Source: a plasmid. Taken from it: a stretch of 64,000 nt of DNA. The notes below the pieces were generated by a model. It was not told the origin of the DNA. It made no database searches and was given only the letters and a program-made list of their open reading frames with translations. Every line of letters starts with the position of its first letter. The first letter of the stretch is position 1. The position numbers were made by a program, and so were the translations under genes. Of the stretch, positions 28,457 through 55,574 are shown in pieces. Location of the stretch: the sequence record NZ_CP024587.1, one strand, 5' to 3'.

Positions 28457-28516
28457 GACAAGGGTGCGTCGGCTGGCGCCTCCCGCGCCGGGGCAGGCCC
28501 CGGCTGCGCCCTTGTC
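28457..28516. repeat. Leading-region stem-loop element, copy 1 (variant GACAAGGG...CCCTTGTC)
   Basis: Inverted repeat about 55 bp upstream of the toprim gene, followed by an SD hairpin ATTCCGAGGAAT. Confidence 0.55.
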
Positions 28517-28568
28517 CCGCGTCCGTCTCGCGGTTGGCGGGTGGAATCACGGTGAAGGATTCCGAGGA

Positions 28569-29522
28569 ATGAGTGGCCCCGATGAGGAGTTGGATAGACT
28601 GAGGGAGGGCGTGAACTGTGCCGCCCTGCTGGAGCGCCTGCCGCCCCCCTGGAAGCTGGACAAGGCGGAAAGCACCCGGGACTGCCTGAAGTACCGGCGC
28701 GGCAAGGGTGAGATCATCATCGTCAACCATGGCGGCCAGGGCTGGTGGGACGCCGGGAGCACCGCCAAGGGCGATGTGTTCCGGCTGGTGCAGCACCTCC
28801 GGCCCGATCTGAACTTCGGCCATGTCCGCAAGCTGCTCCGCGAGATGGTCGGGTTGCAGCCGAGCTTTCCCGAGCACGAGCGGGTGCGTCCGCAAGGGGA
28901 GGGGAGCGTCCCACCCGCCATGCGCTGGGCTGCGGCGAAGTCTCTCCGTCCGGGATCGCGGGCCTGGGGCTACCTGGCCGAGGTCCGGCATCTGCCCTCT
29001 CCGGTGCTTCGGGCAGCGGCGGCGGCGGGCGCCCTCCGGGAGGGGGCCTACGGCACCGCCTGGTTCGCCCATCGCGACGAGAGCGGCACGCTGACAGGCT
29101 TCGACATGCGCGGGCCGGTGTTTCGCGGCTTCGCCAAGGGGGGCGAGAAGACCCTGTTCCGCCTGCCCGGCTGGATCCGCTCGCGGGAGGTGCTGCCGCA
29201 CCGCCTGGCCGTGGCCGAGGCGCCGATCGACGCCCTGAGCCTCGCGGCGGTCGAACGACTGCGGGGCGACACCCTCTATGTCGCGACCAGCGGCGGCATG
29301 GGGCCTGGAACCGTCCGTGCCCTGGACCTTCTGCTGGCCGCCATGGCCGCCCTCCCGGATGCCTGCCTGGCCGTCGCCACCGACAGTGACCCACCCGGCG
29401 AACGCTACGCCGCCTTCCTGGGGGAGCGGGCCGCGGCGGCGGGCGTGCCCAGCGAGCGCTGCCTGCCACCGCACGGGCTGAACGACTGGAACGACGCCTT
29501 GCGACAGGGGAGGGGGGCATGA
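28569..29522 (+). CDS. DUF3991-Toprim domain protein (conjugative-element primase/topoisomerase-like)
   Basis: 'EIIIVNHGGQGWWDAGSTAKGDVFRLVQHL' is DUF3991-like. C-terminal Toprim has 'AEAPIDALSLAAVE...LYVATSGG' and 'LAVATDSDPPGERYA'. Confidence 0.7.
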   Translation: MSGPDEELDRLREGVNCAALLERLPPPWKLDKAESTRDCLKYRRGKGEIIIVNHGGQGWWDAGSTAKGDVFRLVQHLRPDLNFGHVRKLLREMVGLQPSFPEHERVRPQGEGSVPPAMRWAAAKSLRPGSRAWGYLAEVRHLPSPVLRAAAAAGALREGAYGTAWFAHRDESGTLTGFDMRGPVFRGFAKGGEKTLFRLPGWIRSREVLPHRLAVAEAPIDALSLAAVERLRGDTLYVATSGGMGPGTVRALDLLLAAMAALPDACLAVATDSDPPGERYAAFLGERAAAAGVPSERCLPPHGLNDWNDALRQGRGA

Positions 29523-29854
29523 GCACCACCGAACGCGCGGCTCCGGCCCCGAGCCACGAAGCGTGGACCCTTGCACGGGCCCTGCACACCGCCTTTCTCC
29601 GGCTGCCCGACCGGCTGAGAGCCCGCTGCACGGTGCCGCCGACCGGGGATGCCGCGATCGACCGGCCGGTGCTGGTCGAGGCCTGCGACGGCTCCGACCA
29701 CTACCGGGGCGTGGTGGTCGCGGGACAGCGCGACGAGAGCGGCCTCTGGTTGCTGGACGACGCCTTCACCCTGCTGACCCTCGACCACGACGACGGCCCC
29801 GAGGCCGCGCTTGTCGTCTGCCATGGATGGAACTGCCATGCCGACCGCATCTGA
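29519..29854 (+). CDS. Hypothetical small protein
   Basis: 111-aa ORF whose start overlaps the toprim stop (ATGA). It overlaps the helicase 5' end, so one of the two starts is likely shorter. Confidence 0.3.
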   Translation: MSTTERAAPAPSHEAWTLARALHTAFLRLPDRLRARCTVPPTGDAAIDRPVLVEACDGSDHYRGVVVAGQRDESGLWLLDDAFTLLTLDHDDGPEAALVVCHGWNCHADRI

Positions 29855-31877
29855 CACCACAGACCACGACCACCTGGTGGCCGGGCTGACCCCTGCCCAG
29901 GGAGAGGCGGCCGGGATGCACGGGCCGGTGCTGGTGCTGGCGGGAGCCGGAACCGGCAAGACCAAGACGTTGACCGCCGGCGTCGTGCTGCGGATCGCCG
30001 AGCGCGGCATCCCCGCCTCTCGCATCCTGGCCGTGACCTTCACCAACAAGGCCGCCAGTGAAATGCGCGCCCGCATCGTCGCCCTGCTTGACGGCCAGGC
30101 GGCGCCATCCTGGATCGGCACCTTCCATGGTCTTGGCGCCCGCCAGCTTCGCCTGGAGCCGGAGATGGCCGGGCTGCGCGAGGGTTTCGACGTGCTCGAC
30201 GCCGACGACAGCCGGCGCCTGCTCAAGCGGATCATGAAGGCCCGAGGTGAGGATGCCGACAACGAGGGCATGGGCAGGGACCCGGTCAAGACCATCGCCG
30301 GACACATCGGACGCTTCAAGGACAACCTCATCACCCCGGGTGAGGCAGCGATCCGCGCCGAGGCGATGATTGCTGGAGACCGGATGGCCGACGCCTCCGG
30401 CCTGCGCGCCGCGGCGCGTGTCTACCCCGAGTATCAGCGGCGGCTGGTGGAGGCCAACGCCGCCGATTTCGGAGACCTGCTGCTCTGGCCGAGCGTGTGC
30501 ATGGGACACGACGAGGAACGCCGGCAGCGCTTCGCCAGCCGCTTCTCCTGCATCCTGGCCGACGAGTACCAGGACGTGAATGCCGTGCAGTACCGATGGC
30601 TCCGGCTGATGGCCAGGGACCATGGCGAGATCTTCGCGGTCGGCGACGATGACCAGGCGGTGTTCGGCTGGCGCGGCGCGGACATCGAATACATCCGCCG
30701 CTTCACGCGCGACTTCCGGGATGCAGCCGTGGTGAAGCTGGAGGACAACTTCCGCTCCACCGGCCACATCCTCGCCGCGGCCAACGCGGTCATCGCGCGC
30801 GAGGACGGCCGCCTCGGCAAGACGCTGCGCCCTACCCGCGAGCAGGGCCAGCCCATCGAGGTGGTCAGGTTCCGCAACGACGAGGCCGAGGCTACCGGCA
30901 TCGTGGCCGAGATCCGCAAGCGCGGCTCGGAGGGCGTGCTCTGGCACGACATGGCCATCCTGTACCGAGCCAACCACCTGTCGCGCAACATCGAGGAGGA
31001 GCTGCTCCGCGCAAGGGTGCCCTATGTGCTGGTGGGCGATGTCGGCTTCTACCAGCGCGCCGAGATCAAGGATGCCCTGGCACTGCTTCGCCTCGCCGCA
31101 AGCCCTGACGATGGCCAGTCCGACGAGGCCTTCCGGCGCGCCTGCAACACCCCACCCCGCGGCATCGGCCCCAAGGCGCTCGATCTGCTGGAGCGCGACG
31201 CCGAATGGCGCGGCTCCTCGCTGCTCGCCGCCTGCCACACCGCGGATCTGCCGGCCAGGGTGCGGGGGGCGGCCGGAGCCTTCGCGGACGCCGTGCGTTC
31301 GGTCGCGGCCGACACCGGCGCCACGGTGGCCGACCGCCTGTCCATGCTGCTCGACCGGACCGGCTACCGACAATGGCTGCGCGACAGCCGCGCCGAGACG
31401 GTTGAGGGGCGCCTGGAGAACCTGGCCGAGCTGGTGCTGCTGGCCGGAGGCTTCCATTCGGCGACCGACTTGCTGGAGCATGCCGCACTGGCCAGCGCCG
31501 CGCCGGGCGAGGAGGCCGGGGGGCGCGTCCAGCTGCTCACCCTGCATCGTGCCAAGGGGCTGGAGTTCGCTCATGTCTTCCTGCCGGCCTGGAACACGAC
31601 GATCTTTCCGAGCCAGTACGGCGACGCGGCTGAGGAACGGCGCCTGGCCTATGTGGCGCTCACCCGCGGCAAGGAGCGGGTGGCGGTCAGTTATGCCGAG
31701 TTCCGCCGCGGCTACGTCGATCCGTCGCCCTTCCTCGACGACATCCCCGAAGCCAACCGGCATGAGGGATGGCTGCGCCCCCTGGAGCGGCGGCCGGCGC
31801 GACCCTCGCCCCGCCAGGCCGGCATGGACGCCCTCAACGAGATGCTCGCCGGCCTCCGTACCCGGCCAAGGGCATGA
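29811..31877 (+). CDS. UvrD/Rep/PcrA-family DNA helicase
   Basis: Walker A 'LAGAGTGKTKTL', 'VTFTNKAASEMRAR', 'ILADEYQDVN', 'LEDNFRST', 'LLTLHRAKGLEF', 'YVALTRGKERV'. Confidence 0.85.
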   Translation: MSSAMDGTAMPTASDTTDHDHLVAGLTPAQGEAAGMHGPVLVLAGAGTGKTKTLTAGVVLRIAERGIPASRILAVTFTNKAASEMRARIVALLDGQAAPSWIGTFHGLGARQLRLEPEMAGLREGFDVLDADDSRRLLKRIMKARGEDADNEGMGRDPVKTIAGHIGRFKDNLITPGEAAIRAEAMIAGDRMADASGLRAAARVYPEYQRRLVEANAADFGDLLLWPSVCMGHDEERRQRFASRFSCILADEYQDVNAVQYRWLRLMARDHGEIFAVGDDDQAVFGWRGADIEYIRRFTRDFRDAAVVKLEDNFRSTGHILAAANAVIAREDGRLGKTLRPTREQGQPIEVVRFRNDEAEATGIVAEIRKRGSEGVLWHDMAILYRANHLSRNIEEELLRARVPYVLVGDVGFYQRAEIKDALALLRLAASPDDGQSDEAFRRACNTPPRGIGPKALDLLERDAEWRGSSLLAACHTADLPARVRGAAGAFADAVRSVAADTGATVADRLSMLLDRTGYRQWLRDSRAETVEGRLENLAELVLLAGGFHSATDLLEHAALASAAPGEEAGGRVQLLTLHRAKGLEFAHVFLPAWNTTIFPSQYGDAAEERRLAYVALTRGKERVAVSYAEFRRGYVDPSPFLDDIPEANRHEGWLRPLERRPARPSPRQAGMDALNEMLAGLRTRPRA

Positions 31878-31953
31878 GGGAGCATAAAAGGTAAGGGAGG
31901 ACGCGACGGCAGGGGAAGGAGATGGACTCTGTGCCACCCTCGGCCGGATCGCC

Positions 31954-32001
31954 GCAAGGGTGCGTCGGCTCACGCCTCCCGCCGCTGCGCGGCGCCCTTG
32001 C
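31954..32001. repeat. Leading-region stem-loop element, copy 2 (GCAAGGG-N34-CCCTTGC)
   Basis: Upstream of the GHKL gene. The extended about 150-nt unit (31930-32060) is shared with copy 3, including TGCCACCCTCGGCC and the GGTCTTCGAGAAGAAGA hairpin. Confidence 0.6.
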
Positions 32002-32088
32002 CCCGCTCCGCCCGGGGCGGCTGCGCGTGGGGGTCTTCGAGAAGAAGATCAGCAGGAGAGGCTACCCGTGACCCACGCCACCACCATC

Positions 32089-33840: not shown

Positions 33841-33916
33841 GGAGGCGGATTCGAGAGGAGGGAAGGGAGAGGAACGAGGGGGCGGGGGAGGCCCTGCCAC
33901 CCTCGGCCAGGACGCG

Positions 33917-33961
33917 GCAAGGGTGCGTCGCTCCGCTCCCGCCGCTGCGCGGCGCCCTTGC
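33917..33961. repeat. Leading-region stem-loop element, copy 3
   Basis: Upstream of the 34030 ORF; followed by the GTCTTCGGGAAGAAGAC hairpin. Confidence 0.6.
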
Positions 33962-34029
33962 CCCGCCCCGGCCGGGGCGGCCGGCGGGCTGGGTCTTCGG
34001 GAAGAAGACGCAGCAGAAGGAACGGGATC

Positions 34030-34203
34030 ATGGATCTCGCCGACCGCCTCGCCCGCCGCAAAGGACGCCGCGAGGACCTCGCCGCCATCGCCGGCCTCCT
34101 CGCCTTCCTGGCCGCGATCCTGGCCATCGTGATCCTGCCCGGGTTCCTGGTGCAGAGCGCCTCCACCAGCCGCGTGCCCGCCCAGCAGGAGGCGCGGCGA
34201 TGA
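34030..34203 (+). CDS. Small membrane protein (57 aa)
   Basis: 'LAAIAGLLAFLAAILAIVILPGFLV' forms a single TM helix; preceded by a copy of the repeat element. Confidence 0.3.
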   Translation: MDLADRLARRKGRREDLAAIAGLLAFLAAILAIVILPGFLVQSASTSRVPAQQEARR

Positions 34204-34562
34204 GCGGCACCACCCTGACCGGCGGCGCCGGCAAACTCGACGTGGCCGTGGTGGAGGACGTGGTGGAAGACGGCTACGGCCTGGTCCGCACCGCCGAGAG
34301 CCCGGCCCTGGTAGTGGCCGTGCTGCATGACGGGACCTCACGTGGCCACGCCCTGGCCCACGGCACCGCCGCCGTGCTCGCCGTGGCGCCCGCGATGCGG
34401 CGCCTGCTCGACGAGGCCCTGAACATCTTCCGCGAGCAGTTCGAGGAGGATGAGCCGGTCTCCGGCGCCGACCTCGTGGACTGGTTCGCGGGCTGGCGCC
34501 GGAAGGTCAGTGCCCTGCTGACACAGCCCGCGCCACCACCGGAAACCCGCACGGACCCCTGA
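34200..34562 (+). CDS. Hypothetical protein
   Basis: 120-aa ORF with ATGA overlap to the upstream ORF. Confidence 0.35.
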   Translation: MSGTTLTGGAGKLDVAVVEDVVEDGYGLVRTAESPALVVAVLHDGTSRGHALAHGTAAVLAVAPAMRRLLDEALNIFREQFEEDEPVSGADLVDWFAGWRRKVSALLTQPAPPPETRTDP

Positions 34563-34618
34563 CGGGCGCGCCGCACCCTCCCGGCTGCCCCCACCATCCC
34601 CACCCGAAAGGAACCGCC

Positions 34619-35209
34619 ATGCCCAACCCGGCACGGCCGCCACGGCTGCTTGTCCTGCGTCCCTACCTGTCGCACGCCGGTCGTGACGACGCCTACGCGC
34701 ATGTCGACGCCCTGGTAATGCACACGCGCGACGGCGCGATGCCACGGCGCTACGGCGATCTGCGACCGCTGCTGTGGCACGAGGACGGCGCCCGGCCGAT
34801 CCTGCACGAGGGCTTCCGCTTCACCTGCCAGATCGACGACCGGCATGCCGAGCCCTACGCACCCCGCTACGGCTATATGCCGGAGTGCGGAGAGGTGTTC
34901 ACCACCAGCGATCTCGCGCGCTTCGGCAAGCCCCTCGCGGCCCTGCAGCGCGGCATGGCTCGGCTGGTCGAGCAGGAAGGGCGCAGCGAGGATCTGGGCC
35001 AGATCCTGGCCCGTCTGGCGCGGGTGCTGCGGGTCGACGGCATCGTCCTGCTGGCGGTTCGGGAACACGGCAGCTTCTTCGCAGAGGATCATCAAATCCG
35101 CCTGACGGCCGAGGCGCCGAACTACGGCGAGGTGATCGGTGATCTCGGCTCCGTCGCCCGCGAGCTGCATCTCCACTGCGCGAAGCGCGCGGGCCGCAGC
35201 GTGGCCTGA
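34619..35209 (+). CDS. Hypothetical protein
   Basis: 196-aa ORF, co-directional; no motifs recognised. Confidence 0.4.
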   Translation: MPNPARPPRLLVLRPYLSHAGRDDAYAHVDALVMHTRDGAMPRRYGDLRPLLWHEDGARPILHEGFRFTCQIDDRHAEPYAPRYGYMPECGEVFTTSDLARFGKPLAALQRGMARLVEQEGRSEDLGQILARLARVLRVDGIVLLAVREHGSFFAEDHQIRLTAEAPNYGEVIGDLGSVARELHLHCAKRAGRSVA

Positions 35210-35212
35210 ACC

Positions 35213-36019
35213 ATGAGTCTCACCTGCGATCCCTCTGAAGGGCTCCCGGCGGCCTGCCCCTGGTGTGGCGGGCCAGCTGTGCTGGAACTGGCCGAGGCGT
35301 GGACCGACCACGCCTTCCAGCTGGAGACCTGCTGCGAGGCGGCCCATGAGGAGGTGTGTGCCGGCCTTGCCGACGATCCCGCCTGGGCGCGCGACCTGCT
35401 GCGCCAACTCGGCGCCGAGGTGCTGTTGGGAGGCACGCTTCGCCGGGTGGCCGATACCGGTTGCGGCCAGCTGCTGCTGGACTGGAAGCTCGAGATCCGG
35501 CCCGTGAGTTTCGCGGCCGCGGCCGGCTTCGTGCGGCGGCATCACGCCCACAATGCCGCCCCGGTCGCCTGGCGCTACGGCGCCGCCATCGCCAACGGGC
35601 CGACCCGGCTGCTGGGCGTGGTGATGGTCGGCAACCCTGTCGCCCGCGGCCTGATGGGCCGCGGCACGGTCGAGGTGAACCGGCTGTGCATCCGCCGCGA
35701 CGTGCCCCGCGTCCTGGCCTGGAACGCCTGCTCGCAGCTCTACGGCTGGGCGGCGCGGGAGGCCGAAGCGCGGGGCTTCGAGCGCATCGTCACCTACACC
35801 CGTGCCGATGAGGAGGGCGGTAGCCTCACCGCCTCGGGCTGGACCAGGGACGCCCGCGTGCGCGGCCGTTCCTGGAGTAGCCCGGCCCGGGCGCGCCGCG
35901 ATCAGGGCGTGCCGATCGACAAGTGCCGTTGGTCCCGCCTCCTGCGGCCTCGCCGGGCAGCGGAGCGCCCATCCGCGCCGAATCCCGTCATGCCTCTCAC
36001 CCTGGATGCTCCCGGGTGA
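35213..36019 (+). CDS. Cys-rich N-terminus plus possible Mom/XF1762-like GNAT-fold DNA-modification domain
   Basis: N-terminal 'CPWCGG...CCEAAHEEVC'. Centre 'FVRRHHAHNAAPVAWRYGAAIANGPTRLLGVVMVGNPVARGLMGRGTVEVNRLCIRRD' resembles the phage Mu Mom family pattern (FVxxxHY...hhGhhhhG...hEhxRLC). Confidence 0.35.
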   Translation: MSLTCDPSEGLPAACPWCGGPAVLELAEAWTDHAFQLETCCEAAHEEVCAGLADDPAWARDLLRQLGAEVLLGGTLRRVADTGCGQLLLDWKLEIRPVSFAAAAGFVRRHHAHNAAPVAWRYGAAIANGPTRLLGVVMVGNPVARGLMGRGTVEVNRLCIRRDVPRVLAWNACSQLYGWAAREAEARGFERIVTYTRADEEGGSLTASGWTRDARVRGRSWSSPARARRDQGVPIDKCRWSRLLRPRRAAERPSAPNPVMPLTLDAPG

Positions 36020-36059: not shown

Positions 36060-36440
36060 GTGGCCACCATCAACATCGTCCTGTCCGCCTATCCCGGCCG
36101 TCGCGTGCGCGAGGTGGGCTGCAGCTGGACCTCCATCGGCATCGGCATCGGCGGCGGCACGCCGACGCGCCGCCTGGCCGTGCAGGGCCTGGGCGGCATC
36201 ACCGAGGCCGTGTCCGCCTTCGGCCGCGACGTGCTGGCCGCCAACCCGGAGGCAAGCTTCGTCATCTCCGTCACGATGGCAAGCGACCAGCGCAAGCCCC
36301 GCGGCTTCGACGACGCCGAGAGGGCCGGGACCTTCGGCCAGCACGCTCATCTGCGCGATGACGTTGGCGAAGAAGCGAATTACCGGAAGCTGGCCAGTCC
36401 GACCGTTTCCGCCCCGACACCGGCTCCAGTCCCGGCATGA
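36060..36440 (+). CDS. Hypothetical protein (GTG start)
   Basis: 'VATINIVLSAYPGRRVREVG...' ORF following the previous gene after 40 bp. Confidence 0.3.
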   Translation: MATINIVLSAYPGRRVREVGCSWTSIGIGIGGGTPTRRLAVQGLGGITEAVSAFGRDVLAANPEASFVISVTMASDQRKPRGFDDAERAGTFGQHAHLRDDVGEEANYRKLASPTVSAPTPAPVPA

Positions 36441-36494
36441 GGCAGGAGAGATGAGAGACAGGGAGGAGGGGCGTGCCGCACCCCGTCCCCCGCC

Positions 36495-36539
36495 GCAAGG
36501 GCAGGGGCCTGACGGCCCGCCGCTGCGCGGCGCCCTTGC
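36495..36539. repeat. Leading-region stem-loop element, copy 4
   Basis: Upstream of the 36594 ORF; followed by the GGTGTTCGGAAAGGAACACC hairpin (36571-36590) holding the SD in its loop. Confidence 0.6.
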
Positions 36540-36593
36540 CCCGGGGGCACGGGGCGCCGGCGACAGGGGAGGTGTTCGGAAAGGAACACCGCC

Positions 36594-36941: not shown

Positions 36942-36951
36942 GGAGCCCCCC

Positions 36952-37230: not shown

Positions 37231-37296
37231 TCCGGTGATCCCGGAAGAAACGGGGCATCGGGAGAGCAGGGCCGTCCCGCACCGGGGACGGCCGCC

Positions 37297-37342
37297 GCAA
37301 GGGGCCGTCGGCTGGCGCCTCCCGCGCTGCGCGCGCCCTTGC
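37297..37342. repeat. Leading-region stem-loop element, copy 5
   Basis: Preceded by hairpin GCCGTCCCGCACCGGGGACGGC (37271-37292); about 100 nt nearly identical to copy 6. Confidence 0.65.
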
Positions 37343-37394
37343 CCCAGCCGCCCCGGATGCGGGTTCGGGTCGCATCGCGAAAGGAGACAGGGCG

Positions 37395-37709: not shown

Positions 37710-37787
37710 GGCAGGCGGAGGAGAAGGAAACCAGCGGCAGAGAGAGGGGAGGGAGAGGCGAGCCGTCCCGCACCGGGGACGGCCGCC

Positions 37788-37833
37788 GCAAGGGTTCGTC
37801 GGCTGGCGCCTCCCGCGCTGCGCGCGCCCTTGC
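37788..37833. repeat. Leading-region stem-loop element, copy 6 (upstream of ardC)
   Basis: Same upstream hairpin (37763-37784). Followed by SD hairpin GGTGTTCC-GAGAGAATGAAAG-GGAACACC (37863-37891) abutting the ardC ATG. Confidence 0.65.
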
Positions 37834-37892
37834 CCCGGCCGCCCCGGATGCGGGGGCGGGGAGGTGTTCCGAGAGAATGAAAGGGAACACCG

Positions 37893-40104: not shown

Positions 40105-41611
40105 GTCGGCCTTGAACAACGTCTTCAGGCTGTCGCCCCTGCGAGCAGGGTGCGGCCTGTCGGGACGCTGGCTTGGCTGATCGGGGTGAGGATTGCCTGT
40201 CGGAGGGCGGCGAGGAGAGCGGCCAAAAGGGCCCTGAGGTGGGCGAGGATCTTGCGGATGTTGTGGCCGCAGCCGCAGAGGACGGCGTAGAGAGCATCGC
40301 CGAGCGTGCCCTTGAGGGCGCAGCGGGCGAGGCGGCCATCGGTCTTCATGTGGCCGATCTCGGGCTCGATGGCGCTGCGGCGGCGGAGCAGCCGGCGCAG
40401 GCGGGGCGTGAGGCCGCGGCTGGTGCCGCTGACGAGCACCCTGGTTGCCGTGACGCCATGGCCGCGGTAGCCGCGATCGACCACGGCGAGGCTGGGACGC
40501 TGGCCGGTGAGGGTCTCGACCTGCTGGAGGGCGTCGGCGAGGGTGTGGCCGTCGTAGGGATTGCCGGGCTGGCTGCGCATGCCGACGACGAAGCCACCGG
40601 CGAGGGTGGTGGCGATGCTGACCTTCGTGCCGAACTCGTAGCGCACCCGCGCCTTGCCCTTGGCGATGCAGTCCACCTCGGGCTCGTGCAGGGCGTAGAG
40701 CTTGCGGGACGACTTCGGTGTCTGGAGCAGCAGGCGGGTGACGAGGGCGATGCGCTGCTCGATGCGCGCCCGCAGTGGCCCGTCAGGGACGGCGCCGAGC
40801 TTGCGTTCAACATCGCGCAGGATGCGGCCGGTGTAGCCCTTGAGCGTGCGCAACGCCTTGCGCATGCGGCGGAACTGCCGGGCGTGGGCGTAGCGCCCCA
40901 CCTGGCCGGCCAGGCGCGGCGCCAGGCGATTGTAGTTCTGGCGCAGGGCGATCCCGGCCTTGTGCGCCAGCGTCACCAGCGAGTGGCGGGCCCGCTCATA
41001 GAGGCGGCTGTCGGTCGGATGGGCGATGGCCTTCTCCATCACTGTGGTGTCCACTGCGATCTCGGCCAAGCTGTTCGACGTCACAGCTCCCGAAGCCTGA
41101 GCCGCCTCGATCGTCCTGGTCAGCAACCACTCGACACCTTCCTCACCGATGCGACCGCGCCAGCGGCTGAGAGAGGAGGGATGGATGGGCGCACGGTGCT
41201 GGAAGAAGGTCTCACCCGTGAAGTGCTGGAAGTACGGGTTCTCCACCCAGCGCGCGAGCACCGCCTCGTCGGAGAGGCCATGGGCGTGCTGGAGGTACAT
41301 CAGCCCGGCGACCAGACGCGGATGCGTGGCCGGCCGTCCCTCAGCGGCGGGGAAGAAGCCGGCCCATTCCCGCTCGAACCAGGACCAGTCGATCAGCGCC
41401 GCCAGCCGCACCAGTTCGTGCCGCCCATCGATCATGTCGACCAGCCGCGGCCGCAGCAGATCGGCCTGTTCCGGCGGGCGCGGGCGGTGCTTCATGCCCA
41501 CAAGATTCGCAGGGTTTGTCGTCGAAAACAATCGAACCCTGCAAATCCAGGTCGCCGAGCCCGGAAAATCTCACAGCTAGATCAGTGCCTTACGAGTTAT
41601 TCAAGGCCGAC
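40105..41611 (-). mobile_element. IS5/IS1182-family insertion sequence (about 1.5 kb)
   Basis: Terminal IRs GTCGGCCTTGAA / TTCAAGGCCGAC flanked on both sides by TACGTA. Contains an intact transposase. Confidence 0.65.
40125..41495 (-). CDS. IS5-family transposase (DUF772 N-domain plus DDE)
   Basis: 'LVRLAALIDWSWFEREWAGFF...THPRLVAGLMYLQHAHGLSDEAVLARWVENPYFQHF' and C-terminal 'RSAIEPEIGHMKTDGRLARCALKG'. Confidence 0.8.
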   Translation of the reverse strand: MKHRPRPPEQADLLRPRLVDMIDGRHELVRLAALIDWSWFEREWAGFFPAAEGRPATHPRLVAGLMYLQHAHGLSDEAVLARWVENPYFQHFTGETFFQHRAPIHPSSLSRWRGRIGEEGVEWLLTRTIEAAQASGAVTSNSLAEIAVDTTVMEKAIAHPTDSRLYERARHSLVTLAHKAGIALRQNYNRLAPRLAGQVGRYAHARQFRRMRKALRTLKGYTGRILRDVERKLGAVPDGPLRARIEQRIALVTRLLLQTPKSSRKLYALHEPEVDCIAKGKARVRYEFGTKVSIATTLAGGFVVGMRSQPGNPYDGHTLADALQQVETLTGQRPSLAVVDRGYRGHGVTATRVLVSGTSRGLTPRLRRLLRRRSAIEPEIGHMKTDGRLARCALKGTLGDALYAVLCGCGHNIRKILAHLRALLAALLAALRQAILTPISQASVPTGRTLLAGATA

Positions 41612-42310: not shown

Positions 42311-42759
42311 AGAATCAGGGGCGAGAAGCTGCTGGCATCCCGGCCGTCCCGGCACCGCTGCGCTCCATGGCCGGCAGCGCAACCCAGCCCGTCTGGGCCG
42401 CAACCCTGCGGGCCGCGTCCTGCGCCGGCCAGGGCCGCTCCCCGGCCATGGTGCCGGCCCGCCCGCGCTGCCCGCGGCGGAGGGGTCATAGGAACAGACC
42501 CACAGGAGGCTCCATGGGAAACAGGTACGAGGCCTGCCATTCGCACAGCCAGTTCCCCGGCACCGCCGTCACCGTGACCGCCCCCTGGCCGCTGCGCCAG
42601 AGCCCGCCGTCCTGGCTGGCCTGACAGCCTGAGCGGCACCTGAACGGCCCGCTCTCCCCGAAACCTCCGCCCCTCCTCCAACCACCGCATCGCACAGGTC
42701 ACCCGGTCGCCCGCATGGGCCGCCGGGCGGCCGCGCATGCGCGCTCGGGAACCCGCGCC

Positions 42760-47904: not shown

Positions 47905-47991
47905 GCAGAGGAGGAGGAACGGGTACGTCTCGTCAGCGCGCGGCGGGCGACCAGGGCGGAACGGAGGGCCTACGAGGATGGCAGCGATCAG
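47905..47991 (+). pseudogene. Remnant of a BrnT (RelE-like, DUF497) toxin, only the C-terminal tail retained
   Basis: Frame upstream of brnA reads 'EEERVRLVSARRATRAERRAYEDG', matching the BrnT C-terminal consensus (xRIISARKATKxEReQY). It has no start and about 60 N-terminal residues are absent. It overlaps the brnA ATG as in intact brnTA operons. Confidence 0.45.
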
Positions 47992-48262
47992 TAAGGAGCA
48001 GCGCGAGCGCCTGGAACGGCTGGCCGCCGCGCCGGAGGATGAGATCGACACCACGGACATTCCGGAAGTCCGGGACTGGTCCGATGCGGTGCGCGGCGGC
48101 CTCCACAGGCCGCGCAAGGAAGCCATCACGATCCGGCTGGATGCGGATGTGCTGGCCTGGTTCAGGGAGCACGTCCAATCGGGCCGGGGCTATCAGACCG
48201 AGATCAACCGAGTGCTACGCAAGCATGTGCGGAATGCCGCGAAGGGGGGCAAGACCCTGTAG
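47978..48262 (+). CDS. brnA: BrnA-family antitoxin (orphan)
   Basis: 'EDEIDTTDIPEVRDWSDAVRG...RKEAITIRLDADVLAWFREHVQSGRGYQTEINRVLRKHV' matches BrnA. Confidence 0.65.
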   Translation: MAAISKEQRERLERLAAAPEDEIDTTDIPEVRDWSDAVRGGLHRPRKEAITIRLDADVLAWFREHVQSGRGYQTEINRVLRKHVRNAAKGGKTL

Positions 48263-48481
48263 CTCGGCCTTGGACCGGCCGTGCAAAAAGAAAGGCGGCG
48301 CCCGAGGGTGCCGCCCAAGTTTAGGGAGGAAACGTCCAAGTAAGGCGGCAACCCAGCGGGTGCCGTGTCGCCGCACCCCGCACCATGACCCAGGCTGCCC
48401 TTCGGGTCCAATCAAATGACGCGCCGCAGCAGAACGGGCCGAGCCGGTGTCCTCGTGCTCCGCTCTCATGCCTGGGATGTT

Positions 48482-48533: not shown

Positions 48534-48770
48534 AGAGGAGGAGCAGGAGCGCTGGCATCCGGGCACCGCCCGGCACCGCTTCGCTCCACGGCCGCCTGCG
48601 CAGCCCTGCCCCGCTGGGCCGCAGCCCGCCCTGCCGGGCTGGGCCGCGTCCGGCGACGGGTCAGGGCCGCTCGCCCGCCGTGGTGCCGGACGGCCCCCGG
48701 CCGCCGGCGTGGGAGGGGTCAGCCCAGGAATGGGGTGACGGGAACCCCGGTCCGGAGAGCCACTCTCGCC

Positions 48771-50537: not shown

Positions 50538-50628
50538 CACCGCAAGCCTGGTCGCATGGCCGACGCCCTGGGAAGGCTGAGAAGCGGACGCAGGACACGA
50601 AGGCCCCTGCCGCATCCGTCCCCCGGCG

Positions 50629-50671
50629 GCAAGGGTGCGTCGCTGCGCTCCCTCGCTCCGCTCGCCCTTGC
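50629..50671. repeat. Leading-region stem-loop element, copy 7
   Basis: About 100 nt (50607-50705) near-identical to copy 8, with one mismatch. Confidence 0.65.
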
Positions 50672-50724
50672 CCCCGGCGGTCCGGAACGCGGCGGCTGGG
50701 GAGGGATCAAAGTAGGAGAAAGCC

Positions 50725-50922
50725 ATGCGCGCGAGCGAAACCGAACTCGACCGCCTCTGGAACAGGTGCGCGAGCCTCGCCAACGACCTGGAGGAAGGTC
50801 TGTGGTCCATGTTTCCGCGGGAATGGGAAGACATCGCCGGGAAACTGGATGAACTGCTGGGCGAGATGGAGGAACTGTCTCCGTCCAGACGCCAGACATT
50901 CGCGGAAAGCCTCGGCCGCTGA
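50725..50922 (+). CDS. Small hypothetical protein (65 aa)
   Basis: Preceded by repeat-element copy 7 and a clear SD 'AGGAGAAAGCC'. Confidence 0.35.
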   Translation: MRASETELDRLWNRCASLANDLEEGLWSMFPREWEDIAGKLDELLGEMEELSPSRRQTFAESLGR

Positions 50923-51077
50923 CACGCACCCGGCGCCCTAGGCGGCGCCGGGCCCTCCTTGCTCCCTCGCAAGCACCAATACGAGTGCGCGCCCTTGCGG
51001 CGCGCGCCGCGTGATCCACGCATGCCCGGCATCCAGCCGGGCCCCCCTTTCCACGATAATCAGAACGAGGTGGCCCA

Positions 51078-51374
51078 ATGGCCTTCATCAGCGTTGCCAC
51101 GCGAGGCTCGGAATCCGAGCCGTTCCAGCTCTCCGGCAAGAACCCGATCCAGCACACGCCGGGTGCCTGCGAGAGCCACGACCGCTTGTTCGAGTATGCC
51201 GGAGGCCACCTGGGCTTCTACGGCTTCCTGCGCGTCGCCAACGCCCGCATCTCCCGGCGCCTTGGGATCGGGCTGGCGGATCTGCCGGACCGGCTCTGGC
51301 GGGATGCCTACGACGACGAGGCGCACCCTTCCGAAGCCGCCGACGAGGCGATCGAGGAAGAAGCCGGCGAATAG
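51078..51374 (+). CDS. Small hypothetical protein (98 aa)
   Basis: Acidic C-terminus; a degenerate copy of the repeat element lies upstream. Confidence 0.35.
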   Translation: MAFISVATRGSESEPFQLSGKNPIQHTPGACESHDRLFEYAGGHLGFYGFLRVANARISRRLGIGLADLPDRLWRDAYDDEAHPSEAADEAIEEEAGE

Positions 51375-51410
51375 GAGCGGAGGGAGCGCTGCCGCATCCG
51401 TCCCCCGGCG

Positions 51411-51453
51411 GCAAGGGTGCGTCGCTGCGCTCCCTCGCTCCGCTCGCCCTTGC
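51411..51453. repeat. Leading-region stem-loop element, copy 8
   Basis: Upstream of the 51549 ORF; shares the CTGCCGCATCCGTCCCCCGGCGGCAAGGG leader with copies 7 and 9. Confidence 0.65.
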
Positions 51454-51548
51454 CCCCGGCGGCCCGGAACGCGGCGGCTGGGGAGGGTCGAGGAGAAAGC
51501 GGCCGGCAAGGCCGGGGCCACCTCGGCATCCCGAATCCCTGATGGGAG

Positions 51549-52256
51549 TTGAGCAATATGGACACCCTGGTTGAGCGCGCCCTGCGCTCGGCAGCCGAGG
51601 ATCTCGGCCTTTCGCCCGATGGATGGAGCCGGATCCGGGGCGATTCCGGCACGAGCCAGGCCTTCCGGCACACCGCCCGCCCCGCCCTGGTGGTCGAGGT
51701 GAGCATGGATGGGCCCGGATGGAGCTGGACGGCCAGCCTGGCGAAGTCGCATCGCCAGCCCGCCCTTGGTCCTGCCCAGCCCTGGGCGTGCATCGACGGC
51801 CTTGCCGTCCGGGTCAGCCCCAGCCAGCGCGGGGCGCTCCTCGATGCCCTGGCGATCGCCGGCGACAACATCGCGGAGGCCAACGCCTGCTCGACCGCGA
51901 TGCTGCAGACCCGCCTGGACGTGCTGGTCAGCCGTCGCGGTTTCGACCTGTTCGTCGCCCCCGTGCAAAACCTCGACAGGAGGCAGGCCGAGCCGGCTGC
52001 CCCGCTGCGCCTGGATTGGAGCTACCGAGGGCAGACGCCGGACGGCGACGACGTCGCGGGCGTCGTTCAGGGCGCAGACGAGGCCGAGGCCATCGAGGCG
52101 GTCGAGCGCCTCTGGGCCGGCCTCGACCTCATGGAGCTATCACCACGCCTCGCCGGGCTGGCGCCCTTGTCCTCCGCTGCCCGCCGCTTGGCCGAAGATG
52201 GATTGCGGCAGGCGGGAGCCCAGGGGCCCGCATCGGGTCTGCCCGCGCTGCACTGA
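51549..52256 (+). CDS. Hypothetical protein (235 aa)
   Basis: Preceded by repeat-element copy 8; followed by a perfect 14-bp-arm palindrome (52290-52319). Confidence 0.4.
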   Translation: MSNMDTLVERALRSAAEDLGLSPDGWSRIRGDSGTSQAFRHTARPALVVEVSMDGPGWSWTASLAKSHRQPALGPAQPWACIDGLAVRVSPSQRGALLDALAIAGDNIAEANACSTAMLQTRLDVLVSRRGFDLFVAPVQNLDRRQAEPAAPLRLDWSYRGQTPDGDDVAGVVQGADEAEAIEAVERLWAGLDLMELSPRLAGLAPLSSAARRLAEDGLRQAGAQGPASGLPALH

Positions 52257-52339
52257 TCCTCCCACCCCCCGAAACAGCCATCGGCATCGCGAACGGCAGG
52301 GCCTGGGCCCTGCCGTTCGCGTTTCAGGAGCCCCGCGCC

Positions 52340-54148
52340 ATGATTTCCGAGCACGGCCACGCCACCATTCTGCACGCCCACCTCTTCGCCGGCCTCGGCG
52401 GAGGTGCCCGCGGCTTCAACCGCGCCACCTCGCGGGTGGGCAACCTCACCGCCAGCTTCCGCTGCCTCGGCGGCATCGACGTCGACGCCGGGGCGATCCG
52501 CGACTTCGGCCGCCTCGCCGGTGTGCCCGGCACCTGCATGGACCTGTTCGACCGCGAGCAGTACCGCGACTTCCACGGCCAGGAGCCACCGATCGGCTGG
52601 CGCGAGGCCACCGTGGACGATGTGCGCGCCGCCTTCGGCCACGAACGCCCCCACGTCCTGTTCACCTCGCCACCCTGCAAGGGCTTCTCCGGCCTGCTCA
52701 GCGAGACCAAGAGCAGGACCCGGAAATACCAGGCGCTGAACCGCCTGACGCTGCGCGGCATCTGGCTGGCGCTGGAGGCCTATCGCGACGATCCGGTGGA
52801 GCTGATCCTGCTGGAGAACGTGCCGCGCATCGCGTCGCGCGGGCGTCCCCTGCTCGACCGGATCACCGGCCTGCTACGCGCCTATGGCTACGCCGTGGCC
52901 GAGACCACCCATGATTGTGGGCAGTTGGGTGGCCTGGCGCAGTCGCGCCGCAGGTTCCTGCTGGTGGCCCGCCACACCGCCAAGGTGAAGCCCTTCCTCT
53001 ACCAGCCGCCGAAGCGCCCGCTGCACGGCGTGGGGGACATTCTTTCCCGGATGTCCCTGCCGGGCGATCCGGCGGCCGGGCCGATGCACCGGGTCCCGAT
53101 GCTGCACTGGTCCACCTGGGTCCGGCTCGCCTTCGTCGAGGCCGGAAGCGACTGGCGTTCCCTCGGCAGGCTCAAAGTCGAGGACGGGATGTTGCGCGAC
53201 TACGCCCTTGCCCCCTGCGGCGAATGGCGCGGCGGCGTTCTCGGCGTGAACCGCTGGGACGAGCCGTCCGGCACCGTGGCGGGCCGTTCCGGTCCCTCCA
53301 ACGGCGCCTACAGTGTCGCCGACCCGCGCCGCGCCGAAGGCGTGGCCGCCTTCGGGCAGTACGGGGTCAAGCGCTTCGACGAGCCGTCCCAGGTGGTGAT
53401 CGGCAAGGCCGCGGTCGGGGCCGGCCATTTCGCCGTGGCCGATCCTCGCCACGCCGGGCCGCCCAAGCACAGCAACGAGTTCCGCATCGTCCCCTGGGAC
53501 GGGGCCGGACGGGCGGTCACAGGCGCCCATGGCACCGGCCAGTGCGTGGCGGATCCGCGCGGAGACGTGCGCCGCTCCGGAGCGCTGGGCGTCGTGTCGT
53601 GGGAGTCCAATGCCGGCACCGTGGCGGGTGAGAGCCTGCCATCCAACGGCACCTTCGCGGTCGCCGATCCCCGGCCGCGCCTGGAACGGGAGAAGGGTGA
53701 CGACTACTACGGCGCCGGCCATTACGGCGTGGTGCCGTGGCGGGAGCCCACGGGTGCCGTCAGCGCCGCCGCCGGCTACGACAACGGCCGCTGGAGCGTG
53801 GCGGACCCCCGCCCGATCCTGCCCAGCGCGACCGAGAAGGTCGTGGCCCGCATCCGCGCCCTCGACGGCACCTGGCACCGGCCTTTCACCACCGCCGAGC
53901 TGGCGGCGCTGCAATCGTTGTTCGACCCGGAGGAGCAGGCCGAGCTGGACGGGCTGAGCGATGCCGACTGGCGCGAGCGCATCGGCAACGCCGTCCCGCC
54001 CGACGCCGCGCAGGCCATCGCCGAGACGATGGGCCGCACGCTCCTGCTGGCCTGGTCGGGCGAGGGCTTCATGCTCTCGGCCCTGCCGATCTGGGTACGT
54101 CCGGTCGCGGTGGCCCTCTCCGTACGCCAGCCCCAGGACGAGGCCTGA
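52340..54148 (+). CDS. Orphan C5-cytosine DNA methyltransferase with C-terminal repeat region
   Basis: Motif I 'LFAGLGGGARGF', motif IV 'TSPPCKGFS', motif VI 'LLENVPR'. The C-terminal half carries five 'VADPR' repeats. Confidence 0.75.
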   Translation: MISEHGHATILHAHLFAGLGGGARGFNRATSRVGNLTASFRCLGGIDVDAGAIRDFGRLAGVPGTCMDLFDREQYRDFHGQEPPIGWREATVDDVRAAFGHERPHVLFTSPPCKGFSGLLSETKSRTRKYQALNRLTLRGIWLALEAYRDDPVELILLENVPRIASRGRPLLDRITGLLRAYGYAVAETTHDCGQLGGLAQSRRRFLLVARHTAKVKPFLYQPPKRPLHGVGDILSRMSLPGDPAAGPMHRVPMLHWSTWVRLAFVEAGSDWRSLGRLKVEDGMLRDYALAPCGEWRGGVLGVNRWDEPSGTVAGRSGPSNGAYSVADPRRAEGVAAFGQYGVKRFDEPSQVVIGKAAVGAGHFAVADPRHAGPPKHSNEFRIVPWDGAGRAVTGAHGTGQCVADPRGDVRRSGALGVVSWESNAGTVAGESLPSNGTFAVADPRPRLEREKGDDYYGAGHYGVVPWREPTGAVSAAAGYDNGRWSVADPRPILPSATEKVVARIRALDGTWHRPFTTAELAALQSLFDPEEQAELDGLSDADWRERIGNAVPPDAAQAIAETMGRTLLLAWSGEGFMLSALPIWVRPVAVALSVRQPQDEA

Positions 54149-54301
54149 GCGCCATGCACCCCACACCATCCATCCCCTGCCGCCGGACCTGGCAGCGGAT
54201 CCTGCACCGCCACAGCCATCGTGCCCCGCCGAAACTGGGGCACCGGCGTCGCAGCCAAGGGTCCGGCCGGGGCACAGCCTGCCGGCAGGACGGCGAGCGG
54301 C

Positions 54302-54853
54302 CTAGCCCGCCGCGGCGCGGATCCGGGCGAGATCGAGGACGCCCTTCGCGCCCCAGCCCTTCGTCCCGGCTGCCACCTCCGGGCGGAACTGCTCATAGAG
54401 CCGGAAGGCCACCCGGTTCAGCTCATCCGGATCCAATGTGGCCGCCAACTCCTCCATCGCCTTCCTGACCGGCGCCAGATCCTCCCCGAAGGCCCTCCGG
54501 ACATACCCGGCTGCCGCCTGCGCGGACGCCGGCTTGTCGTGATCGAGCGCGCGTAGCGACCCATCCACCTCGACCACCGGCAGGTCGCGGCCGAGCAGAT
54601 GCACCGCCTTCTGCCGATGCCTCCCCTGACCCTGCTTGCGCGCCTCGTCACGCAGGTCGCCGCTCTCATGCCCCTCCTCGGCGATGCCGATGGACTTCGC
54701 CTTCGCGCGGGCACTGAGGCCGGCGACGGCCCGGCCAAGCGTGATCGCCGTTTCGGGGTCATGCCCCAGGCGCTCGGCCACCACCGCGGCCCAGAGCGTC
54801 AACACCGGCGCCCGGTTCACCTGGACCGTCGGCCCCGCCTTCGTCCCGGTCAT
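54302..54853 (-). CDS. Hypothetical protein (183 aa), opposite orientation
   Basis: Start at the internal Met 'MTGTKAGPTVQVNRAPVLTLWAAVVAERLG' of ORF 54302-55651. The upstream part of that ORF overlaps the + strand gene and is probably spurious. Confidence 0.4.
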   Translation of the reverse strand: MTGTKAGPTVQVNRAPVLTLWAAVVAERLGHDPETAITLGRAVAGLSARAKAKSIGIAEEGHESGDLRDEARKQGQGRHRQKAVHLLGRDLPVVEVDGSLRALDHDKPASAQAAAGYVRRAFGEDLAPVRKAMEELAATLDPDELNRVAFRLYEQFRPEVAAGTKGWGAKGVLDLARIRAAAG

Positions 54854-54982
54854 GCGCGTCCATCCCATCCATCCCGCTCGCCTCAACGAGCGAGCGGCGG
54901 GACGGATGCGCCACGCCGGCTTCCACCATCCCGGCCATTGGCCGAGCCGGCGCCTCGCGGATTCCGGGGCAGAGCCAACACC

Positions 54983-55477
54983 ATGAAGATCGAACTCCGC
55001 AGTGTCAGCTACAACGCCGCCCTGAGCGAGGAGACGATGAACTTCCACGCCGACATCTGGATCGACGGGAGGAAGGCGGGCTTCGCCCATAACCACGGGA
55101 CCGGCGGCAACACCAACGTGCAGCCCAACACCCTGCGCCAGCGCCTCGACGAGTACGGCAGGACTCTCCCGCAGGTGGACATCGGGACCGCCACGGGCGG
55201 CGAGCCGCGCATGATCACCCAGGACGCCGAGTGGATCGTGGACAGCCTCCTGACGGAATGGATCGTGCGGCGTGACCTGAAGCGGGCACTGAAGAACCGC
55301 GTCCTCTACACCCACACGGAGATGCCCGGGGTCTACCAGACCAAGGTGCTGAAACCGGACGAGATGGCGAAGATCCTCGCGTCGACGGAGGTGAAAGCAA
55401 AGTGGAAGGTCAAGGCTTGGCTGAACACCATGCCGGAAGAGGAGGCCATCGCCATCTACCGGAACAACGGTCGCTGA
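54983..55477 (+). CDS. Hypothetical protein (164 aa)
   Basis: 'MKIELRSVSYNAALSEETMNFHADIWIDGRKAGFAHNHGTGG'; lower GC and a good codon pattern. Confidence 0.45.
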   Translation: MKIELRSVSYNAALSEETMNFHADIWIDGRKAGFAHNHGTGGNTNVQPNTLRQRLDEYGRTLPQVDIGTATGGEPRMITQDAEWIVDSLLTEWIVRRDLKRALKNRVLYTHTEMPGVYQTKVLKPDEMAKILASTEVKAKWKVKAWLNTMPEEEAIAIYRNNGR

Positions 55478-55528
55478 AACGCGCACGAGGGCAGGACGGA
55501 AGATGGCTGCCGCATCGTGGCGTCCGCC

Positions 55529-55574
55529 GCAAGGGAAGGCGGCTGCGCCGCCCGCGCGAAGCGCGCGCCCTTGC
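55529..55574. repeat. Leading-region stem-loop element, copy 9
   Basis: GCTGCCGCATCG...GCAAGGGAAGGCGGCTGCGCC...GCGCGCCCTTGC upstream of the 55689 ORF. Confidence 0.6.

Follow-up and report, generated by a model that had tools for sequence, protein, structure and literature searches.

To our knowledge, promoters that work on single-stranded DNA (ssDNA) have been demonstrated only in enterobacterial IncF and IncI plasmids, and the wider searches for them that we know of leaned on Escherichia coli consensus boxes or on BLAST to Frpo. The Frpo/ssi promoters of the plasmids F and ColIb-P9 reportedly go back to Masai and Arai in 1997. Here we describe a repeated hairpin element in a 64,000-nt stretch of a plasmid (sequence record NZ_CP024587.1), which we call the window. 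Nine copies of the element stand ahead of genes such as those for ArdC and a C5 cytosine methyltransferase, in a block at 28-56 kb of the window. The best reading of the sequence is that the element represents a new ssDNA promoter family, an analogue of Frpo rather than a homologue.

In the closest described systems, the Frpo/ssi elements of F and ColIb-P9, long imperfect stem-loops of the leading region fold on the transferred strand (T-strand), which is the template of co-oriented early genes such as ssb, psiB and ardA; the stem rebuilds a -35 and a -10 box, and conversion to duplex DNA silences the promoter (PMC9849209, PMC11541004). Such promoters have been proven in F (PMC9849209) and before six operons of the IncI plasmid pESBL, with klcA, ardA and methyltransferase operons among those fronted, each operon having its own hairpin and a mapped start (PMC12672017). 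The elements described here likewise are long imperfect stem-loops of a putative leading region that fold on the predicted T-strand, and this strand is the template of co-oriented genes; their proposed mode of action is likened to the rebuilt boxes and to the loss of activity in duplex DNA. A further parallel is that pESBL has non-homologous hairpin classes (class 2 and class 3) in equivalent positions (PMC12672017), which is mirrored in the window by the coexistence of the main family, a "class 2" hairpin and a hairpin upstream of ssb.

The differences from Frpo are as clear as the similarities. The hosts are Alphaproteobacteria, no sequence similarity is detectable, a three-way junction sits above the -35-like motif, of the -10 only (C/T)A remains, its A being extrahelical, and there are nine copies per plasmid compared with the two homologous Frpo copies known in F. 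Frpo is also about 300 nt long, against ~105 nt here. The pESBL classes have mapped start sites and canonical E. coli boxes, whereas the present element has a predicted start and no canonical E. coli boxes. A distant-mode BLAST of one element against 72,556 PLSDB plasmids, a set rich in IncF and IncI plasmids, found only Roseomonas, Komagataeibacter and Methylosinus, known Frpo sequences not being compared directly, and no description of this element family appeared in the literature searched. A first-pass annotation of this DNA had called the repeats candidate Frpo-like promoters; the T-strand fold, the leading-region geometry and the coupling to gene starts agree with that description, and no sequence relation to Frpo and no boxes of the E. 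coli type were found.

More distant parallels exist in other replicons. The ssoA/ssoU elements of rolling-circle plasmids are strand-specific folded ssDNA on which host RNA polymerase uses -35/-10-like stem elements, and they combine conserved unpaired motifs with variable stems as the present family does; unlike it, they yield a short lagging-strand primer and not an mRNA, occur once per plasmid in Gram-positive hosts and have no gene-start coupling. The early promoters of phage N4, small GC hairpins with a 3-nt loop on a single-stranded template that is helped by SSB, recall the inner hairpin A of our element. They need the virion RNA polymerase of N4 itself, and no gene for an N4-type virion RNA polymerase turned up among the window proteins scanned.

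Nine copies in one orientation

The pattern CAAGGG-N20-45-CCCTTG has nine matches in the window, all on the + strand, while shuffled sequences average 0.18. A covariance model built from 17 copies and run with filters off scored the nine at 50.8-84.6 bits; because nothing in the rest of the 64 kb exceeds 18.7 bits, the window contains exactly nine copies, all in 28.4-55.6 kb. The palindrome of 43-48 nt that had first been noticed is only the inner part of the element: its flanks also pair, so that the whole forms a ~105-nt three-way-junction hairpin, which we place on the minus strand, the template strand of the genes that follow.

The copies are as follows, with the core given in + strand coordinates and its first number being the start of the pattern match. 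Copy 1 (hairpin 28427-28545; CAAGGG at 28459-28464 and CCCTTG at 28509-28514) lies ahead of a unit of DUF3991-Toprim, a 111-aa protein and UvrD (ATG 28569). The gene of a HATPase-domain protein (GTG 32068) follows copy 2 (31923-32032; core 31955-32000), and a 57-aa open reading frame (ORF; ATG 34030), with further genes at 34200-36019, follows copy 3 (33886-33992; core 33918-33960). Copy 4 (36465-36570; core 36496-36538) precedes a zinc-finger-like 115-aa protein (ATG 36594) and then DUF5983. Next come copy 5 (37266-37373; core 37298-37341), upstream of DUF4326 (ATG 37395), and copy 6 (37757-37864; core 37789-37832), upstream of ArdC (ATG 37893). Downstream of copy 7 (50599-50702; core 50630-50670), in which the inner hairpin A is degenerate, is a 65-aa ORF (ATG 50725). 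Copy 8 (51381-51484; core 51412-51452) fronts the C5 cytosine methyltransferase unit, with candidate starts at 51558 and 51623, and copy 9 (55499-55605; core 55530-55573) a 70-aa ORF (ATG 55689) and a 321-aa ORF.

Most of what the first-pass annotation had said of these repeats stands, with corrections. It had counted at least nine copies in a single orientation, each intergenic and each before a co-directional gene, and this is so for nine of nine, all ahead of + strand genes. The spacing it had put at 60-110 bp is 53-115 nt when measured from the 3' end of the core to the likely start codon, with five copies at 53-55 nt and one more at 60 nt. The close pairs 2/3 (77% identity), 5/6 (90%) and 7/8 (93%) are real, whereas copy 9 is just 58% identical to copies 7 and 8 and does not form a triplet with them. 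Confinement to the 28-56 kb block also holds for the repeats but not for ssb, which had been counted in the block; it lies outside that range at 58225-58878 and is preceded by a different hairpin.

A family of alphaproteobacterial plasmids

The nearest relatives of the window are Roseomonas plasmids, and the block is 93% identical in plasmid unnamed2 of R. mucosa AD1. The same gene block is present in 502 alphaproteobacterial plasmids, Ti/Ri-type plasmids of Agrobacterium and Rhizobium among them. Besides those of the window, the covariance model detected elements in nine plasmid loci and in three genome contigs, for a total of 43 (E 1e-11 to 0.05); the hosts are Roseomonas, Komagataeibacter, Acetobacter, Methylosinus, Rhizobium rhizogenes (pRi2659), Bradyrhizobium, Afipia, Rhodoblastus and two Acetobacteraceae metagenome-assembled genomes. 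This search of related plasmids had been proposed in advance, and all 43 of the elements it returned share the orientation of the conserved block genes (ArdC, DUF3991-Toprim, ParB_N and the giant methylase-helicase). The nine plasmid loci (L001, L003, L004, L125-L130) come with annotation tables and contain 34 elements, of which 33 end 15-84 nt ahead of an annotated start codon that points the same way. The Toprim gene itself is preceded by an element in five genera, and the gene content between elements varies among plasmids.

No hits came from the type IV secretion and relaxase region of the AD1 plasmid, which spans 37.5 kb, nor from a 50-kb part of a Komagataeibacter plasmid that takes in its non-leading DNA. 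The abundance at non-leading loci that would have spoken against a leading-region element was not seen in the other 36 kb of the window or in these 87.5 kb of non-block plasmid DNA, whole chromosomes lying outside the scan. A scan of 596 Gb of genome contigs with the pattern GCAAGGG-N20-50-GCCCTTGCC proved too loose, with 120 loci that were nearly all due to chance, and later served as a specificity control: only 3 of 100 such genome loci score with the covariance model, and at the two of these three whose neighbors were scanned, the element lies directly upstream of ArdC and DUF3991-Toprim.

REP/BIME sequences and the rhizobial RIME are also GC-rich intergenic palindromes that are repeated. 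They are dispersed over chromosomes in both orientations, whereas the present element keeps to one plasmid gene block in a single orientation and belongs to no Rfam family. At the gathering threshold, the Rfam scan of the window returned only suhB/mmgR, and a scan of copies 4-6 at E<=10 returned nothing relevant. Membership of a known REP or BIME family, one of the outcomes considered at the start, is disfavored by the lack of an Rfam match, the single orientation and the distribution limited to the block.

Structure and strand of the hairpin

From its base, the hairpin consists of an imperfect outer stem of ~20 bp, a conserved internal loop beside the core that reads C.C/C.C on the + strand and G.G/G.G on the minus strand, an invariant core of 7 bp (GCAAGGG/CCCTTGC) and, enclosed by it, a three-way junction from which the GC-rich hairpin A (a GC stem of 5-6 bp with a triloop) and a smaller hairpin B extend. 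The half-sites of the core are 29-44 nt apart in the window, and this spacing is variable in other plasmids. On the minus strand, the junction strands CGGGAG and CGACGNA are conserved. A pseudoknot between the junction motif CCTCCC (+ strand; in RNA CCUCCC, which is anti-Shine-Dalgarno-like) and GGGAGG just downstream was considered and set aside, as the motif occurs in only ~60% of members. Automated approaches to the structure were of limited use. A MAFFT alignment of the 17 copies misaligned the outer arms, and RNAalifold gave only 14 pairs from it; a Nussinov-type column pairing and a separate helix-length heuristic were too noisy and were replaced by a hand-set structure, the covariance model and an alignment-free comparison of the arms.

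Selection on this structure is supported by the 43-sequence alignment, in which 90.9% of cells are paired as compared with 75% in column shuffles and ~42% when the partners are slid. Compensatory changes are frequent, both sides having changed in 15 of 20 pairs (108 cells). The structure also favors one strand. Folding energies calculated with DNA parameters favor the minus strand in 42 of 43 members (mean -4.6 kcal/mol, p = 1.6e-8) and in 26 of 27 non-redundant representatives, and those calculated with RNA parameters still favor it in 32 of 43, whereas 300 control windows from the same block show no bias (160/300, mean difference -0.2 kcal/mol). Minus-strand DNA folds reach -43 to -45 kcal/mol, and 0-3 of 200 shuffles fold at least as well.

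The mismatches point the same way. Read on the + strand without an alignment, the outer arms contain 79 C.C, a count that comes mostly from the conserved loop beside the core, together with 44 A.C and 34 C.T, against only 5 G.G, 19 G.T and 8 A.G. The minus strand accordingly carries G.G, G.T and G.A, the most stable kinds of mismatch. The molecule that folds is thus the strand complementary to the mRNA, which argues against an mRNA structure and for single-stranded DNA. We regard it as quite probable that the element acts as ssDNA on the T-strand.

Promoter-like geometry

When the T-strand folds, its 5' arm would serve as template, and its 3' arm, followed from the junction down to the base, would stand in for the non-template strand. 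The core on the non-template arm then reads CCCTTG(C/A)(C/G)G, that is, a -35-like CTTG(C/A)C, with TTG in 41-43 of 43 members and CTTGAC in those from Rhizobiales. A second motif, GG(C/T/G)A, starts at positions 25-27 of this arm in 37 of 43 members and in none of the 43 on the other arm; it places a conserved A 17-18 nt past the TTGNNN hexamer. Because the other arm never has the motif and has almost no A at positions 24-33, the conserved A is without a Watson-Crick partner. It is unpaired in 29 of 37 minus-strand DNA folds, typically 3-4 bp from the end of the stem, and the + strand base that faces it is a T in all nine window copies (T28436, T31932, T33895, T36474, T37275, T37766, T50608, T51390 and T55508, in copy order).

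In Alphaproteobacteria, sigma-70 promoters retain TTG at -35 and TA at -12/-11, separated by a spacer of 17 bp; -7T is mostly missing, and CarD has been suggested to make up for this (PMC8407463, PMC7703639). Judged strictly by E. coli standards, the element does not pass as a promoter; by alphaproteobacterial ones it would be a weak match with the correct spacing, and its pattern is in line with the relaxed -10 of that clade (PMC8407463). The -35/-10 arrangement that was to be sought by folding both strands was found in part, as CTTG(C/A)C with an unpaired A 17-18 nt away, and a TATAAT-like -10 was not.

Other signals were compared by eye and rejected. For a sigma-54 promoter (TGGCAC-N5-TTGC), the order and spacing of the motifs are wrong. 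CCCTTG resembles part of a sigma-32 promoter (CCCTTGAA-N13-15-CCCCATNT), but the AT is ~5 nt too close, and of the Caulobacter pattern TTGACGS-N10-14-GCTANAWC, the -35 fits Rhizobiales members and the -10 does not. Intrinsic termination was rejected as well: a scan of 28-38.5 kb gave five terminator-like sites, all of them away from the elements, and the elements are followed by G/A-rich sequence without a U-tract.

The sequences on either side of the hairpin are conserved in character. A purine (GA) tract of 14-48 nt, 71-86% purine, lies directly upstream of every window hairpin. That of copy 6 is at 37731-37760 on the + strand, immediately 5' of the hairpin, and the others, on the same strand, are at 28383-28430, 31902-31926, 33846-33889, 36432-36468, 37251-37269, 50589-50602, 51364-51384 and 55480-55502. 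Over the 43 elements the tract averages 71% purine and is found across genera, reaching 92% in Komagataeibacter. Read on the folded minus strand, the tract becomes a polypyrimidine tail that follows the hairpin on its 3' side; past the stem, the non-template arm runs on into this tail, which creates a fork junction. It is possible that the tract is an unstructured landing pad for SSB or primase on the T-strand, or that it forms a stable RNA:DNA hybrid that acts as a primer.

Between the hairpin and the start codon, copy 6 has a small leader stem-loop on the + strand (GGTGTTCC...GGGAACACC, 37863-37890), with counterparts at 36572-36590, 32032-32048, 33993-34008 and equivalent positions. The leader stem-loop is conserved as GGTSTTC-purine loop-GAASACC just before the Shine-Dalgarno site, which it sometimes presents in its loop. 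In 39 of 43 members, the 40-nt leader downstream of the hairpin folds better on the + strand. The stem-loop would lie at the extreme 5' end of the predicted transcript and could be a 5' hairpin that stabilizes the mRNA.

Polarity of transfer

No relaxase or origin of transfer (oriT) was found in the window, and relatives were used to infer its polarity. The AD1 plasmid has GCGCACCATGGGTGCATTGGTGTATGGAGC in the intergenic region that precedes a small gene and mobF (L002, 16731-16765, + strand). The equivalent region of a Komagataeibacter (K. saccharivorans) plasmid contains GCACCCGGAACGGGTGCATTTGTATATGGAC on the opposite record strand (L131, ~18270-18305, minus strand). Both candidate nic regions resemble the nic 25-mer of R388, GCGCACCGAAAGGTGCGTATTGTCT, and the shared sequence is GGTGCATT(G/T)GT(G/A)TATGGA. 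The R388 25-mer is composed of a hairpin, 8 nt and nic, read on the transferred strand (PMC4176350).

In the AD1 and Komagataeibacter plasmids, the strand with the nic sequence is the one from which the block genes are transcribed, and these genes point toward oriT; the leading region of F shows the same geometry (PMC9849209). By homology, the minus strand of the window is predicted to be the T-strand, entering from the high-coordinate side. As a separate observation, PLSDB types 16 of 18 related Roseomonas plasmids as non-mobilizable, and the candidate MOBF oriT regions suggest that this typing may underestimate mobility.

Proposed mechanism

From the observed structure, covariation, strand bias, motif geometry and gene association, and from the nic polarity of relatives, we infer recognition by RNA polymerase, a transcription start and activity confined to ssDNA. 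As we picture it, during conjugation the transferred strand (the minus strand of the window, template of the block genes) would enter the recipient 5' end first, from an oriT beyond position 64000, and each intergenic element would fold on arrival into its ~105-nt three-way-junction hairpin. The stem would recreate duplex promoter DNA: the core on the 3' (non-template) arm would supply the -35-like CTTG(C/A)C, the GC-rich stem a spacer of 17-18 bp, and (C/T)A would come next, with the extrahelical or mismatched A, 3-4 bp from the base of the stem, serving as -11A. Past the base the strands would fork, the template branch running into the gene and the other branch forming the unstructured polypyrimidine tail. 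Host RNA polymerase with sigma-70, perhaps together with CarD and SSB, would start ~38-40 nt after the core and 6-7 nt after the putative -10. This predicted start coincides with the foot of the small leader hairpin and, in most copies, precedes the start codon by 15-25 nt, so that the mRNA would begin with the small stem-loop, followed by the Shine-Dalgarno site and the start codon. Complementary-strand synthesis would then dissolve the hairpin. In the rightward duplex, G/C would stand where the A was, and for this reason we propose that the promoter is switched off once the plasmid is double-stranded. The outcome would be early, transient expression of about nine anti-restriction and establishment operons.

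That each element is specifically a promoter, existing only while the plasmid is single-stranded, seems to us slightly more probable than its opposite. A fuller version, whose chances we consider evenly balanced, holds that this is an undescribed class of ssDNA promoter, widespread in conjugative plasmids of Alphaproteobacteria, including Ri/Ti-type plasmids and those of human-skin Roseomonas; that it joins a duplex -35 (CTTGAC/CTTGCC) to a pre-flipped -11 adenine at a fork junction and so bypasses a full -10; and that each of about ten leading-region operons has its own switch, on in ssDNA and off in double-stranded DNA.

Several points weigh against a promoter. Conservation at the -10 is limited to the dinucleotide (C/T)A at -12/-11, mostly with C in place of T at -12, and nothing like TATAAT is present. 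In the -35-like hexamer, G.G mismatches occupy the final one or two positions, where binding of sigma region 4 might be affected, and a scan of 28-38.5 kb for E. coli-type promoters on both strands found nothing. The shuffle z-scores of single sequences are modest: in three copies they are -3.1, -2.7 and -4.0 for the minus strand (range -2.7 to -4.0), against -1.8, -0.3 and -2.8 for the + strand, because any sequence of 80% GC folds well. The polarity of the window is taken from relatives since it has neither oriT nor relaxase of its own, and the Methylosinus plasmids have a single annotated relaxase (MobA/MobL), the gene of which runs convergent to the block. Finally, a simple sigma-70 model leaves the conserved junction strands and the polypyrimidine tail unexplained; they could be recognized by another protein, such as a primase. 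They may serve a second function, for example, primer formation or the loading of SSB or primase.

Alternative explanations

The most serious alternative, although an unlikely one, is that the T-strand hairpins are priming sites at which a primase or primosome begins complementary-strand synthesis at several points of the leading region. Candidates for this role are the plasmid DUF3991-Toprim protein, host DnaG and PriA, and promoter activity may coexist with priming, as proposed for Frpo. The minus-strand bias and the covariation fit priming equally well. Conserved unpaired junction sequences next to a polypyrimidine tail suggest sequence-specific recognition of ssDNA, a pyrimidine template favors primers that start with a purine, and the block encodes both the Toprim protein, whose gene follows an element in five genera, and a UvrD helicase. 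Primer RNA from Frpo has been reported (PMC12672017, citing Masai and Arai 1997). What priming does not need is a short, fixed, co-oriented distance to a start codon, as seen in 33 of 34 elements, nor the conserved + strand leader hairpin with its Shine-Dalgarno site, nor TTG and an unpaired A at promoter spacing.

An element that acts in the mRNA, by RNase III-type processing as in the early region of phage T7, as a decay barrier or in translational control, is improbable. The high stability of the + strand RNA fold (mean about -63 kcal/mol), the position between cistrons, the CCUCCC motif in ~60% of members and the GA-rich upstream tracts would suit such a role. The opposite strand, however, folds better in 42 of 43 members with DNA parameters and in 32 of 43 with RNA parameters while controls are unbiased, and the + strand mismatches are the destabilizing C.C, A.C and C.U. 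The conserved T of the + strand 5' arm is, on the other strand, the A of the conserved minus-strand motif, and no element has a U-tract or a terminator-like site.

Folded-ssDNA recombination sites or cassette boundaries, which would shuffle leading-region modules in the manner of integron attC, are very improbable. Like attC, the elements are folded single strands with a strand-selective fold and a structure conserved beyond the sequence, and they lie in succession between co-oriented small gene units; moreover, copy pairs share flanks, which suggests modular duplication, and the genes between elements differ among plasmids. However, attC sites have R''/R' (RYYYAAC/GTTRRRY) at their outer ends, stand 3' of cassettes and need IntI, none of which was seen here: no integron integrase is among the window proteins scanned, conservation is central in the palindrome while the outer columns are not conserved, and the distance is fixed before starts, not after stops, with a promoter-like motif present.

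Just as improbable is a double-stranded operator, at which a plasmid regulator would co-repress the block through the GCAAGGG/CCCTTGC half-sites as at ArdK, KorA or KorB boxes, since the half-sites, although conserved across orders and repeated before each operon, are 29-44 nt apart in the window and variably spaced elsewhere, the arms outside the core diverge yet stay complementary through compensatory changes and indels that duplex binding does not need, and strand asymmetry has no meaning for duplex DNA. The operator and the REP-like RNA stabilizer that had been offered at the outset as alternatives to ssDNA promoters are disfavored, the former by strand asymmetry, compensatory changes and variable half-site spacing, the latter by strand bias and distribution.

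Other hairpins and the gene block

Apart from the family of putative ssDNA promoters, the window contains long hairpins of other classes on its minus strand. A "class 2" hairpin at 48560-48705 lies upstream of the ParB_N gene, and its paralogue at 42335-42480 upstream of the gene for a 1705-aa methylase-helicase; neither is a member of the main family. They are ~130 nt long and 77-81% identical to each other, and fold better on the minus than on the + strand (-46.6 vs -38.1 kcal/mol at 48560-48705 and -39.3 vs -34.4 kcal/mol at 42335-42480). The class 2 hairpin is kept 64-66 nt before ParB in two other Roseomonas plasmids, and in other genera the ParB position is held by the main family. A third hairpin, at 58140-58285 upstream of ssb and likewise not a family member, has folds of -46.5 kcal/mol (minus strand) and -41.5 kcal/mol (+ strand) and is conserved ~105 nt before ssb in two Roseomonas plasmids (L001, L129). 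There is no TTG on its would-be non-template arm.

The window has a GC content of ~70%. A Pfam scan placed on the + strand of the block, within 28-59 kb, genes for DUF3991-Toprim, UvrD, the HATPase-domain protein, DUF5983, DUF4326, ArdC, the 1705-aa methylase-helicase, BrnA antitoxin (47978-48262), the ParB_N protein and the C5 methyltransferase; it also found RepC at 18938-20305 and ssb at 58225-58878. The genes behind elements encode ArdC, methyltransferases, ParB_N, DUF4326, Toprim/UvrD and BrnA antitoxin, with ssb and imuB/dnaE2 nearby. BrnA appears to be an orphan antitoxin, in agreement with the initial description of orphan antitoxins in the block, as the window has no adjacent BrnT toxin gene. 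The 696-aa ParB ORF call is probably ~97 codons too long. The sole sizeable minus-strand gene across 28-56 kb is an IS5-type transposase (DUF772 and DDE_Tnp_1; 40125-41531) between the ArdC unit and DUF6927, and an ISL3 transposase is found at 7519-9072. Bordering the block directly is a cassette of an imuB-like Y-family polymerase and the error-prone polymerase DnaE2 (20455-25445, with 20678-25445 given in the Pfam map), a flank reminiscent of the umuDC-like operons at the edges of anti-defence islands (PMC11541004).

The suhB/mmgR match (alpha-r8 small RNA family) is full-length in Rfam terms (57.2 bits, E = 4e-9) and lies at 48278-48353 on the minus strand, between the BrnA antitoxin gene and the ParB_N gene and antisense to the block. 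It keeps the CCUCCC loops of its family, and many leaders of block genes start with GGGAGG. Its template is the + strand, so that this small RNA could be made only after complementary-strand synthesis, and we can only speculate that it shuts off the early genes.

Biological significance

Single-strand promoters account for the expression of anti-defence genes by incoming plasmids that have yet to become double-stranded. If our reading is true, a covariation-supported, strand-biased family in Alphaproteobacteria would show that this strategy is general. The combination of core, stem and unpaired A would be a searchable signature for leading regions and hence for candidate anti-defence genes, useful in a clade in which most plasmids are typed as non-mobilizable. 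Being small and easily synthesized, the element might also be a model for RNA polymerase at fork-junction or hairpin promoters without -7T. Finally, its presence would flag the small uncharacterized genes downstream as candidates for early establishment or anti-defence functions.

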